Assembly (NCBI GenBank): GCA_032718475.1
Contig: JAUCBJ010003066.1
Span: 2,476 to 66,475, forward strand
Origin: Nemertoderma westbladi
Lineage: Eukaryota; Animalia; Xenacoelomorpha
Length of the DNA stretch: 64,000 bases
Direction of reading: 5' to 3'
Positions 47,715-53,359 of this stretch are shown in pieces. How positions within the stretch are numbered: position 1 is the stretch's first letter; every line of letters begins with the position of its first letter. The notes under the pieces are model-generated. The model searched no databases, was not told the DNA's origin, and was given only the letters and a program-made list of their open reading frames with translations. Both the position numbers and the translations under genes were made by a program.

Positions 47715-50700
47715 TGACAACCATTTTTGTTCTCATTAGGTTGGAAACTATTGTCTGTTCTCACTAGTTTCGGGAACTATTTTGTTCTCACTAGTTTCGG
47801 GAACTATTTTGTTCTCAATAGGTTCGGGAACTAATTTGTTCTCACTGGGTTGGAATCTATTTTTGTTCGCACTAGTTTCGGGAACTATTTTGTTCGCACT
47901 AGGTTCGGGAACTATTTTGTTCTCACGAGGTTGGAATCTATTTTTGTTCGCACTAGTTTCGGAAACTATTTTTTTCGCACTAGGTTCGGGAACTATTTTG
48001 TTCTCACGAGGTTGGAATCTATTTTTGTTCGCACTAGTTTCGGGAACTATTTTGTTCGCACTAGGTTCGGGAACTATTTTGTTCTCACGAGGTTGGAATC
48101 TATTTTTGTTCGCACTAGTTTCGGGAACTATTTTGTTCTCACTAGGTTCGGGAACTATTTTGTGCTCAATAGGTTCGGGAACTATTTTGTTCTCAATAGG
48201 TTCGGGAACTATTTTGTTCTCACGAGGTTGGAATCTATTTTTGTTCGCACTAGTTTCGGGAACTATTTTGTTCGCACTAGGTTCGGGAACTATTTTGTTC
48301 TCACTGGGTTGGAATCTATTTTTGTTCGCACTAGTTTCGGGAACTATTTTGTTCGCACTAGGTTCGGGAACTATTTTGTTCTCACGAGGTTGGAATCTAT
48401 TTTTGTTCGCACTAGTTTCGGGAACTATTTTGTTCTCACTAGGTTCGGGAACTATTTTGTGCTCAATAGGTTCGGGAACTATTTTGTTCTCAATAGGTTC
48501 GGGAACTATTTTGTTCTCACTAGGTTCGGGAACTATTTTGCTCTCAATAGGTTCGGGAACTATTTTGCACTCACAAGGTTCGGGAACTATTTTGTTCGCA
48601 CTAGGTTCGGGAACTATTTTGTTCTCACTAGGTTCGGGAACTATTTTGTTCTCACTGGGTTGGAAACTATTGTTTGTTCTCACTAGTTTCGAGAACTATT
48701 TTGTTCTCAATAGGTTCGGGAACTATTTCAGCTCACATGTTGACAACAATTTTTGTTCTCAATAGGTTGGAAACTATTGTTTGTTCGCTCTAGTTTCGGG
48801 AACTGTTTTGTTCTCACTAGGTTCGGGAACTATTTTGTGCTCAATAGGTTCGGGAACTATTTTGTTCTCAATAGGTTCGGGAACTATTTTGTTCTCACTA
48901 GGTTCGGGAACTATTTTGCTCTCAATAGGTTCGGGAACTATTTTGCACTCACTAGGTTCGGGAACTATTTTGTTCGCACTAGGTTCGGGAACTATTTTGT
49001 TCTCACTAGGTTCGGGAACTATTTTGTTCTCACTGGGTTGGAAACTATTGTTTGTTCTCACTAGTTTCGAGAACTATTTTGTTCTCAATAGGTTCGGGAA
49101 CTATTTCAGCTCACATGTTGACAACAATTTTTGTTCTCAATAGGTTGGAAACTATTGTTTGTTCGCTCTAGTTTCGGGAACTGTTTTGTTCTCACTAGGT
49201 TCGGGAAAAATTTTGTTCTCACGAGGTTGGAATCTATTTTTGTTCGCACTAGTTTCGGGAACTATTTTGTTCTCACTGGGTTGGAAACTATTGTTTGTTC
49301 TCACTAGTTTCGAGAACTATTTTGTTCTCAATAGGTTCGGGAACTATTTCAGCTCACATGTTGACAACAATTTTTGTTCTCAATAGGTTGGAAACTATTG
49401 TTTGTTCGCTCTAGTTTCGGGAACTGTTTTGTTCTCACTAGGTTCGGGAAAAATTTTGTTCTCACGAGGTTGGAATCTATTTTTGTTCGCACTAGTTTCG
49501 GGAACTATTTTGTTCGCACTAGGTTCGGGAACTATTTTGTTCTCACGAGGTTGGAAACTATTTTTGTTCTCACTAGTTTCGAGAACTATTTTGTTCTCAA
49601 TAGGTTCGGGAACTATTTCAGCTCACATGTTGACAACAATTTTTGTTCTCGATAGGTTGGAAACTATTGTTTGTTCGCTCTAGTTTCGGGAACTGTTTTG
49701 TTCTCACTAGGTTCGGGAACTATTTTGTTCTTAATAGGTTCGGGAACTATTTTGTTCTCACTAGGTTCGGGAACTTTTTTGTTCGCACTAGGTTCGGGAA
49801 CTATTTTGTTCTCACTAGGTTCGGGAACTATTTTGTTCTCACGAGGTTGGAAACTATTTTTGTTCTCACTAGTTTCGGAAACTATTTTGTTCTCAATAGG
49901 TTCGGGAACTATTTCAGCTCACATGTTGACAACAATTTTTGTTCTCAATAGGTTGGAAACTATTGTTTGTTCGCTCTAGTTTCGGGAACTGTTTTGTTCT
50001 CACTAGGTTCGGGAAAAATTTTGTTCTCACGAGGTTGGAATCTATTTTTGTTCGCACTAGTTTTGGGAACTATTTTGTTCGCACTAGGTTCGGGAACTAT
50101 TTTATTCTCACTATGTTCGGGAACTATTTTGTTCTCACGAGGTTGGAAACTATTTTTGTTCTCACTAGTTTCGGAAACTATTTTGTTCTCAATAGGTTCG
50201 GGAACTATTTCAGCTCACATGTTGACAACAATTTTTGTTCTCAATAGGTTGGAAACTATTGTTTATTCGTTCTAGTTTCGGGAACTGTTTTGTTCTCACT
50301 AGGTTCGGGAACTATTTTGTTCTCAATAGGTTCGGGAACTATTTTGGCTCACTATGTTGACAACAAATTTTTGTTCTCAATAGGTTGGAAACTATTGTTT
50401 GTTCGCTCTAGTTTCGGGAACTATTTTGTTCTCACTAGGTTCGGGAACTATTTTGTGCTCAATAGGTTCGGGAACTATTTTGTTCTCAATAGGTTCGGGA
50501 ACTATTTTGTTCTCAATAGGTTCGGGAACTAATTTGTTCTCACTGGGTTGGAATCTATTTTTGTTCGCACTAGTTTCGGGAACTATTTTGTTCGCACTAG
50601 GTTCGGGAACTATTTTGTTCTCACGAGGTTGGAAACTATTTTTGTTCTCACTAGTTTCGGAAACTATTTTGTTCTCAATAGGTTCGGGAACTATTTCAGC

Positions 50701-53250
50701 TCACATGTTGACAACAATTTTTGTTCTCAATAGGTTGGAAACTATTGTTTGTTCGCTCTAGTTTCGGGAACTGATTTGTTCTCACTAGGTTCGGGAAAAA
50801 TTTTGTTCTCACGAGGTTGGAATCTATTTTTGTTCGCACTAGTTTCGAGAACTATTTTGTTCGCACTAGGTTCGGGAACTATTTTGTTCTCACGAGGTTG
50901 GAAACTATTTTTGTTCTCACTAGTTTCGAGAACTATTTTGTTCTTACTAGGTTCGGGAATAATTTTGTTCTCACGAGGTTGGAATCTATTTTTGTTCGCA
51001 CTAGTTTGGGAACTATTTTGTTCGCACTAGGTTCGGGAACTATTTTGTTCGCACTATGTTCGGGAACTATTTTGTTCTCACGAGGTTGGAAACTATTTTT
51101 GTTCTCACTAGTTTCGGAAACTATTTTGTTCTCACTAGGTTTGGGGACTATTTTGTTCTCACTAGGTTCGGGAACTATTTTGTTCTCATTAGGTTCGGGA
51201 ACTATTTTGTTCTCAATAGGTTCGTGAACTATTTTGTTCTCAATAGGTTCGGGAACTATTTTGTTCTCACTAGGTTCGGGAACTGTATTGTTCTCACTAG
51301 ATTCGGGAACTATTTCAGCTCACATGTTGACAACAATTTTTGTTCTCAATAGGTTGGAAACTATTGTTTATTCGTTCTAGTTTCGGGAACTGTTTTGTTC
51401 TCACTAGGTTCGGGAACTATTTTGTTTTCAATAGGTTCGGGAACTATTTTGTTCTCACTAGGTTCGGGAACTATTTTGTTCTCAATAGGTTCGTGAACTA
51501 TTTTGTTCTCAATAGGTTCGGGAACTATTTTGTTCTCAATAGGTTCGTGAACTATTTTGTTCTCACTAGGTTCGGGAACTATTTTGTTCTCGCTAGGTTT
51601 GGGGACTATTTTGTTCTCACTAGGTTCGGGAACTATTTTGTTCTCATTAGGTTCGGGAACTATTTTGTTCTCTCTAGGTTTGGGAACTATGTTGTTCTCA
51701 CTATGTTCGGGAACTATTTTGTTCTCAATAGGTTCGGGAACTATTTTGTTCTCACTAGGTTCTGGAACTATTTTGTTCTCACTAGGTTCGGGAACTATTT
51801 TTGTTCTCACTAGTTTCGGAAACTATTTTGTTCTCAATAGATTCGGGAACTATTTCAGCTCACATGTTGACAACAATTTTTGTTCTCAATAGGTTGGAAT
51901 CTATTTTTGTTCGCACTAGTTTCGGGAACTATTTTGTTCGCACTATGTTCGGGAACTATTTTGTTCTCACGAGGTTGGAAACTATTTTTGTTCTCACTAG
52001 TTTCGGAAACTATTTTGTTCTCAATAGATTCGGGAACTATTTCAGCTCACATGTTGACAACAATTTTTGTTCTCAATAGGTTGGAAACTATTGTTTATTC
52101 GTTCTAGTTTCGGGAACTGTTTTGTTCTCACTAGGTTCGGGAACTATTTTGTTTTCAATAGGTTCGGGAACTATTTTGTTCTCACTAGGTTCGGGAACTA
52201 TTTTGTTCTCAATAGGTTCGTGAACTATTTTGTTCTCAATAGGTTCGGGAACTATTTTGTTCTCAATAGGTTCGTGAACTATTTTGTTCTCACTAGGTTC
52301 GGGAACTATTTTGTTCTCACTAGGTTTGGGGACTATTTTGTTCTCACTAGGTTCGGGAACTATTTTGTTCTCATTAGGTTCGGGAACTATTTTGTTCTCT
52401 CTAGGTTTGGGAACTATGTTGTTCTCACTATGTTCGGGAACTATTTTGTTCTCACTAGGTTCTGGAACTATTTTGTTCTCACTAGGTTCGGGAACTATTT
52501 TTGTTCTCACTAGTTTCGGAAACTATTTTGTTCTCAATAGATTCGGGAACTATTTCAGCTCACATGTTGACAACAATTTTTGTTCTCAATAGGTTGGAAA
52601 CTATTGTTTATTCGTTCTAGTTTCGGGAACTGTTTTGTTCTCACTAGGTTCGGGAACTATTTTGTTTTCAATAGGTTCGGGAACTATTTTGTTCTCACTA
52701 GGTTCGGGAACTATTTTGTTCTCAATAGGTTCGTGAACTATTTTGTTCTCAATAGGTTCGGGAACTATTTTGTTCTTAATAGGTTCGTGAACTATTTTGT
52801 TCTCACTAGGTTCGGGAACTATTTTGTTCTCACTAGGTTTGGGGACTATTTTGTTCTCACTAGGTTCGGGAACTATTTTGTTCTCATTAGGTTCGGGAAC
52901 TATTTTGTTCTCTCTAGGTTTGGGAACTATGTTGTTCTCACTATGTTCGGGAACTATTTTGTTCTCACTAGGTTCTGGAACTATTTTGTTCTCACTAGGT
53001 TTGGGATCTATTTTGTTCTCACTAGGTTCGGGAACTATTTTGTTCTCACTAGGTTTGGGAACTATTTTGTTCTCACTAGGTTCGGGAACTATTTTCATCT
53101 CAATAGGTTCGGGAACTATTTTGTTCTCACTAGGTTGGGGAACTATTTTGTTCCCTATAGGTACGGGATCTATTTTGTTCTCACTAGGTTCGAGAACTAT
53201 TTTGTTCTCACTACGTTCGGGAACTATTTTATTCTCAATAGGTTCGGGAA
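47715..53250 (+). repeat. 27-bp satellite (~200 copies, with higher-order subunits); unit = XPA exon-4 acceptor plus first 9 exon nt
   Basis: Unit ctattttgttctcactag|gttcgggaa; the last copy continues as coding sequence GTT CGG GAA CGA GCG. Confidence 0.97.
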
Positions 53251-53359
53251 CGAGCGCTTATTGTGTGGGAAAGTTGGGAGGCATTAGAGGAGGCCAAGGA
53301 AAAACAAACAGAAAATCGACAGGAATTGAAACAGAAAAAATTTGACAAAAAATTAAAAG
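53242..53359 (+). CDS. XPA: XPA exon 4
   Basis: ttctcaatag|[42 protein letters not shown] (cf. [20 protein letters not shown]...[10 protein letters not shown]); 118 nt; donor G|GTTAGA. Confidence 0.93.

Follow-up and report, generated by a model that had tools for sequence, protein, structure and literature searches.

How does a spliceosome find the correct end of an intron if this end has been copied about two hundred times in tandem and all the copies are transcribed ahead of the genuine one? This question is raised by the XPA gene of Nemertoderma westbladi, located on a 64,000 bp stretch of contig JAUCBJ010003066.1 (in the following referred to as the window), where a 27-bp minisatellite reiterates the boundary between intron 3 and exon 4. 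The original prediction regarded each repeat unit as a poison acceptor or a potential recursive splice site and the array as either a self-correcting ratchet ladder or a sink for nonsense-mediated decay (NMD) that tunes the level of XPA. As judged from the sequence, the array is probably a so-called 'mirage' minisatellite, a tolerated passenger rather than a regulator, of which the spliceosome likely uses the last copy only. The features of the XPA gene which are relevant to this question are the following:

41401 to 41609, plus strand: XPA exon 1, weakly similar to the N-termini of homologues (E 0.03)
41979 to 42236, plus strand: XPA exon 2, PF01286 zinc finger
43895 to 44054, plus strand: XPA exon 3, PF05181, ending in CAG at 44054, donor CAG|GTATTT
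following exon 3, plus strand: XPA intron 3, 9187 nt, phase 0
47713 to 53251, plus strand: 27-bp minisatellite, 206 junction copies, across the intron 3/exon 4 boundary
53225 to 53241, plus strand: authentic acceptor of intron 3 in the last array copy, AG at 53240-53241
53242 to 53359, plus strand: XPA exon 4, 118 nt, purine fraction 0.72, donor AAG|GTTAGA at 53360

The identity of the gene follows from the Pfam matches of exon 2 (PF01286) and exon 3 (PF05181), the best named matches to the latter being echinoderm and mollusc proteins with 66-70% identity, and exon 4 aligns to human XPA 188-224 (E 4e-8). As had been predicted, exon 3 ends in CAG. Solely the last array copy reads on as VRERALIVW, colinear with the homologues, and since these pass directly from Gln to Val or Ile at this point, only the acceptor at 53240-53241 yields a normal protein. 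Tandem Repeats Finder (TRF) delimits the array to 47725-53251 with 204.9 copies, while unit calling yields 206 junction copies from 47713 to 53242, that is, 205 decoys and the authentic junction. Each unit joins the terminal 17 nt of intron 3 to the initial 10 nt of exon 4. The predicted extent of 47715 to 53359 therefore includes the array, which ends at 53251, but also the remainder of exon 4. An array of 206 copies is not due to chance. Moreover, two of the eight large arrays present in the window straddle a verified acceptor, for which a random-seed model, rough and applied post hoc, puts P at ~0.004.

The copies are less uniform than had been assumed. Successive junctions are spaced by 27 nt in 174 cases, by 28 nt in 18, by 25 nt in 11 and by 26 nt in two. 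The AG is kept in 179 of the 205 XPA decoys and absent in 26. AG|GT is found in 136 decoys and TAG|GT in 118, so that the number of copies originally given is real while that of AG|GT units, put at about 200, was overstated by about a third; the supposed standard unit TAG|GTTCGG does occur in the array, yet in its exact form in only 83 decoys. In 43 AG-bearing decoys (24% of 179) the AG is followed by TT or AT instead of GT. All 179 AG-bearing decoys run into a stop inside the array and would thus indeed act as poison acceptors if used, whereas the peptide V R E L F C S H followed by a stop, which had been considered typical, results from only 25 of them. Similarly, phase 0 and the prevalent 27-nt period were recognised correctly, but merely 62 of the 179 AG-bearing decoys are in frame with exon 4 because units of 25, 26 and 28 nt interrupt the period.

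The internal organisation of the array matches that described for mirages, with inner copies homogenised in higher-order blocks and edge copies representing private variants. Among the 174 regular units, 52 distinct types are distinguishable; exact higher-order repeats of 179-294 bp occur inside the array, and seven of the last ten units belong to private types compared to 26 of 174 overall. Head-to-tail copies of the intron 3/exon 4 boundary would have been made, likely by slippage and unequal exchange. At its two edges the array shows the following peculiarities:

47610 to 47712, plus strand: degenerate 5' edge, three decayed copies, AG absent in all (TAT, TAA, TAA)
53212 to 53214, plus strand: end of the penultimate copy, TAC in place of TAG, the sole TAC among 206

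Directly ahead of the tract, at 47658 in the 5' edge and preceding one of the decayed copies, the motif CTGAC resembles the branch-site consensus and is likely to represent the ancestral branch site. Since this site is stranded 5.6 kb upstream, the branch point would now be supplied by the penultimate unit (CTCAC, A at -32). The TAC at the end of the penultimate copy eliminates the nearest competing AG. We considered whether this exchange, the AG loss in the three 5' edge copies and the CAG of the authentic last copy in a second array described below reflect a selective polishing of the last copy, which turned out to be inseparable from edge divergence. As 26 of 205 decoys lack the AG (the penultimate loss alone has P ~0.13) and edges diverge anyway, we did not count the edge losses as selection. 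Constraint on individual columns was assessed from the number of changes on a spanning tree of the ungapped unit types, a count which is blurred by T-run shifts in some of them. The two AG columns had changed 2 and 5 times, the two GT columns 2 and 0 times and the +5 G column twice, compared to a mean of 2.7, and two other T columns are likewise without any change. Accordingly, among XPA unit types neither AG, GT nor +5 G shows extra conservation relative to other columns.

To place the array in an evolutionary context, 80 XPA loci from other organisms were compared. In 33 of them the same intron is present, in 22 the exons are contiguous, in three the boundary is unresolved and in 22 exon 4 was not found; the loci are distant (49-71% identity in exon 3) and some are redundant, and contigs built from short reads may be broken at arrays. 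Of the 33 loci having the same intron, 27 begin exon 4 with GT, and none of these 33 distant loci carries a repeat spanning the acceptor. The AG|GT is thus the ancestral Gln|Val junction, which was captured by the duplication. Neither across the 33 loci nor within the AG, GT and +5 G columns do we see the evolutionary conservation expected of a recursive site. A search of metagenome contigs with an exact 22-nt exon 4 pattern gave no match.

What, then, distinguishes the last copy? Masking of the decoys in a hairpin of the unit, with the true site remaining open, was rejected: ordered by opening energy, the true acceptor comes 83rd of 180 in XPA and 137th of 423 in the second array. At the sequence level, two positions set the authentic XPA acceptor apart from the consensus unit. 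The purine fraction amounts to 0.72 in exon 4 compared to 0.43 after a decoy, and no more than five AG-bearing decoys are situated less than 300 nt from the donor of exon 4. With local structure and site strength excluded, and with the last copy uniquely possessing a full purine-rich exon and the nearest donor, exon definition is the likely basis of its selection. The last copy would win because it alone precedes the full purine-rich exon and the nearest exon 4 donor, while rare slips to nearby decoys would be cleared by NMD as a by-product and the exon junction complex (EJC) would suppress re-splicing at CAG|GTTCGG. It has been reported that the EJC represses regenerated donors (PMC8184009).

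The window contains a second array of the same architecture in the POLR3C gene, which is arranged head to head with XPA and is identified by PF08221, PF05645, PF22536 and PF20912 (Pfam):

17997 to 18309, minus strand: POLR3C last coding exon, PF20912, matching human RPC3 434-528 (E 7e-19)
18309 to 38931, minus strand: sister array, 509 copies of a 38/43-bp unit across the last-exon acceptor, 20.6 kb
38965 to 39126, minus strand: POLR3C penultimate exon, donor CAG|GTGGGT at 38965

The last intron of POLR3C is 20,656 nt long and consists almost entirely of the array of its own acceptor, which places the true acceptor 20,656 nt from the donor. The array holds 422 AG-bearing decoys, none of which is followed by GT; 420 of them would meet a stop ahead of the true acceptor, one would extend the protein in frame by 27 residues and the remaining one would reach a stop within the exon. 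The authentic last copy ends in CAG, an ending found in 4 of the 509 copies, and the copy at 19094 is an exact match to the authentic site across 26 bases of intron and 17 of exon. The motif CATTGTT, shared by the intronic start of the array and the exon, fits an origin by slippage. A homologue search with a POLR3C exon gave no match at E 0.001. Provided that this gene copy works, an array in a terminal intron with AG|GT in 0 of 422 decoys means that acceptor arrays are tolerated here without any ratchet and without junction-dependent NMD.

Several observations weigh against a passenger of which only the last copy is spliced. That this copy is the one used is deduced from protein homology, and the authentic acceptor is no stronger and no more accessible than its decoys, which leaves its selection unexplained by local sequence. 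Simple exon definition is strained by POLR3C, where the first decoy would close an intron of 59 nt, similar in scale to the other introns of the gene (94-196 nt). Pseudo-sites of such repeats may in fact be spliced, as the human 6-16 gene and CBS are reported to use the two nearest ones (PMC1557585). The evolutionary comparison is weakened by the distance and partial redundancy of the loci, 22 of 80 lacking a detectable exon 4. Finally, the donor which would be regenerated upon splicing of exon 3 to a decoy has to be taken into account. Using a crude score based on matches to the nine-position donor consensus and on pairing energy with the U1 end, we compared it with eight native donors in the window and 2356 background GT sites. 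CAG|GTTCGG attains 6/9 matches and -6.0 kcal/mol, which lies within the range of the native donors (-5.6 to -11.1 kcal/mol). It also beats the donor in place at a decoy (5/9, -4.4 kcal/mol), which is the geometry a ratchet requires.

Three biological readings compete with that of a tolerated passenger, and each of them appears improbable. According to the first, a regulated use of the nearest decoys would lower XPA output by way of NMD, with copy number acting as a dial. The poison nature of all 179 AG-bearing decoys upstream of a further intron, the five AG-bearing decoys close to the exon 4 donor and the reported use of proximal pseudo-sites in some human minisatellites (PMC1557585) are in line with such a tuned sink. 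Its status as a selected function, however, is disfavoured by the lack of conservation of both the columns and the array and by the fact that the nearest competitor is just the copy which lost its AG. In addition, the POLR3C array, built alike but located in a terminal intron, would presumably be unable to feed junction-dependent NMD. We therefore grant this part of the original prediction a slim chance. Just as slim is the chance of a mildly harmful expansion which causes exon 4 skipping or mis-splicing, with a weak XPA allele persisting by drift in the manner of the ABCA7 variable number tandem repeat (VNTR), an intronic repeat reported to cause exon skipping (PMC13196383). The scale of the array, far beyond that of the published cases examined, would agree with damage, and the most disruptive decoys may have been selected against, as the missing AG of the penultimate copy and of the three copies at the 5' edge could indicate. 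Yet XPA exons 1-4 and the POLR3C exons are open and conserved, and the AG losses at the edges are those to be expected from edge divergence.

Still somewhat less probable is the recursive ladder, in which exon 3 would be joined to a decoy, the regenerated CAG|GTTCGG would be re-spliced onward up to the last copy and errors would thereby be corrected. The ratchet-type juxtaposition of AG and GT is indeed present in 136 of 205 decoys. The donor-like character of CAG|GTTCGG, as originally put forward, is borne out by its place within the native range, by its rank in the top 4% of the background GT sites and by the related locus L012, which natively uses CAG|GTTCGT at the same intron. Weak cryptic recursive sites are, moreover, reported to function upon EJC loss (PMC8184009). 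Nevertheless, CAG|GTTCGG stands at the weak end of the native range, seven of the eight native donors pairing more strongly. The tolerance of native donors for +3 T, invoked in its favour, is real inasmuch as GTTAGT occurs twice and GTTAGA is present, but all three of these carry +4 A along with +5 G, and the decoy is without +4 A. For a cryptic recursive-splicing (RS) exon, the donors available inside the array are confined to the TAG|GT of the next unit (mostly 5/9, at best 6/9). The 43 AG-bearing decoys which regenerate no donor, decoys 2 and 3 from the 5' end among them, would be dead ends. Drosophila ratchet points are described as conserved, as needing a cryptic exon and as being switched off by a weakening of their donor (PMC8605326). 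The 9-mer CAG|GTTCGG also forms the true exon 3/exon 4 junction, and an efficient ratchet would therefore presumably remove the 118-nt exon 4 as well, with a frameshift as the result. Together with the ancestral Val codon as the source of the GT, its lack of conservation by column, the absence of arrays from the 33 related loci and the complete lack of AG|GT in POLR3C, this leaves the self-correcting ladder with little support. That the copy numbers are inflated or the layout mis-assembled, as long arrays are hard to assemble, the present numbers stem from one assembly and a mirage is reported to have been mis-assembled in the lancelet draft (PMC3087553), we hold to be very improbable in view of the 52 types among 174 regular units, the nested higher-order blocks and the clean unique flanks, which are unlike an assembler loop.

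Repeats also abound elsewhere in the window. Its eight large tandem arrays account for 44,120 of 64,000 bp (69%), which is why we consider array expansion a general trait of this region. A 22-bp array at 42263-43839 in XPA intron 2 ends 55 nt before exon 3, and a 23-bp array lies at 44778-46631 in intron 3; neither spans a splice site. Intron 3 also harbours two short elements with inverted ends (46998-47295 and 46670-46860), which by eye resemble miniature inverted-repeat transposable elements (MITEs). The start codons of POLR3C and XPA are about 780 bp apart (40622-41401), so that a shared promoter is possible. At 10954-16191 on the plus strand, an intronless frame of 354 codons encodes a hydrophobic N-terminal stretch, a Pro/Thr stalk and a partial fibrinogen C domain (PF00147, E 2e-8), and its last codons and stop are already covered by the start of a 46-bp array of 91 copies.

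A motif search of the window did not reveal the last XPA exon, nor was it among the tblastn matches listed, and intron 4 is therefore probably longer than 10.6 kb (53360-64000). Within it, a putative frameshifted reverse transcriptase fragment resembling that of a long interspersed nuclear element (LINE) was recognised by eye from the translation (53600-54420, minus strand). It is followed at 54666-60277 by a 34-bp array of 165 copies, which contain TAG|GTTCAG on the plus strand. Read on the minus strand, the array is directly preceded by TACTAAC, and its last copy opens into a hydrophobic frame of 31 codons (54589-54681); possibly this is another acceptor array, belonging to a nested gene. 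Further downstream, a 31-bp array on the minus strand (60502-64000, 113 copies) shows CACTAAC and then AAG in each copy, its last copy leading into a short open frame with a candidate donor-like site GTAAGA near 60470. None of four candidate peptides of such a nested gene in intron 4 matched Pfam. It is conceivable, though in our view unlikely, that acceptor arrays of hundreds of copies are a trait of this genome, that the spliceosome either waits while up to 20 kb with identical acceptors are transcribed or walks from one acceptor to the next by repeated re-splicing, and that the two intron 4 arrays may serve a nested gene as acceptor arrays. If true, such waiting or walking would put co-transcriptional 'first come, first served' splicing to an extreme test in nature. 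XPA and POLR3C provide a built-in control, the former being mostly AG|GT in an internal intron and the latter never AG|GT in a terminal one. Nascent-RNA data on both could separate exon definition, first-come selection and re-splicing. On the practical side, acceptor arrays will confuse gene prediction and spliced alignment.

Compared to known systems, the XPA array shares with the AGGT model of intron gain the tandem copies of an AG|GT proto-splice site; that model, however, as described, duplicates exonic DNA to create a new intron, whereas in XPA the acceptor of an existing ancestral intron has been duplicated (PMC3443670). With recursive ratchet points and RS-exons it has in common the juxtaposition of AG and GT and a regenerated donor stronger than the next one in place (PMC8605326, PMC8184009). 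Ratchet points are, according to these reports, single, conserved and of strong consensus, while the XPA donor is weak, unconserved, missing in 24% of the AG-bearing decoys and identical to the true exon junction. A more closely related class is represented by the 37-bp VNTR in intervening sequence 7 (IVS7) of human F7, of which only the donor copy adjoining the exon is reportedly used, and by related donor-side minisatellites in 6-16, CBS intron 13, LMNB2 and PDGF with up to 25 pseudo-sites (PMC1557585). As in XPA, a splice site is reiterated in identical copies, the authentic one adjoining the full exon. Unlike XPA, however, these reported repeats are donor-side, comprise 5-25 copies and have the authentic site transcribed first, while in XPA it is transcribed last, after all the decoys. 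On the acceptor side, CBS 844ins68 is said to duplicate the acceptor, which fits a reference title. The T833C/844ins68 allele carries an insertion in the exon 8 region that is reported to make an alternative splice site while mostly wild-type mRNA is formed (PMC1334203); unlike the XPA array it amounts to one extra copy.

The closest counterparts are the mirage minisatellites of lancelets, reported for the globins BflGb6 and BflGb9 and for Adh3 (PMC3087553), to which PGBD5 and troponin C have been added (PMC3902484). They are reported not to disturb splicing (PMC3087553, PMC3902484), and concerted evolution from which the edges are excluded is described (PMC3087553); silence of the decoys and length polymorphism are reported as well. 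The XPA array resembles them in that its unit spans the intron-exon boundary, the authentic boundary is represented by its last copy, the splice signal is retained in many units though not in all (179 of 205 decoys by their AG), and homogenised inner copies are flanked by divergent edges. BflGb6, as XPA, is affected on the acceptor side, yet with a reported 3-6 units as opposed to 206 copies in XPA and 509 in POLR3C, spanning 5.5 and 20.6 kb. In the literature searched, none of the acceptor arrays reached hundreds of copies, and bigger ones may have been published. The arrays reveal no new mechanism, since they belong to a known class for which no harm is reported. New is their scale, and their value is that of a test system: the real acceptor is transcribed only after 179 and 422 near-identical ones, respectively, which would allow the modes of acceptor choice to be told apart more sharply than with the 3-25 copies of the published cases examined.

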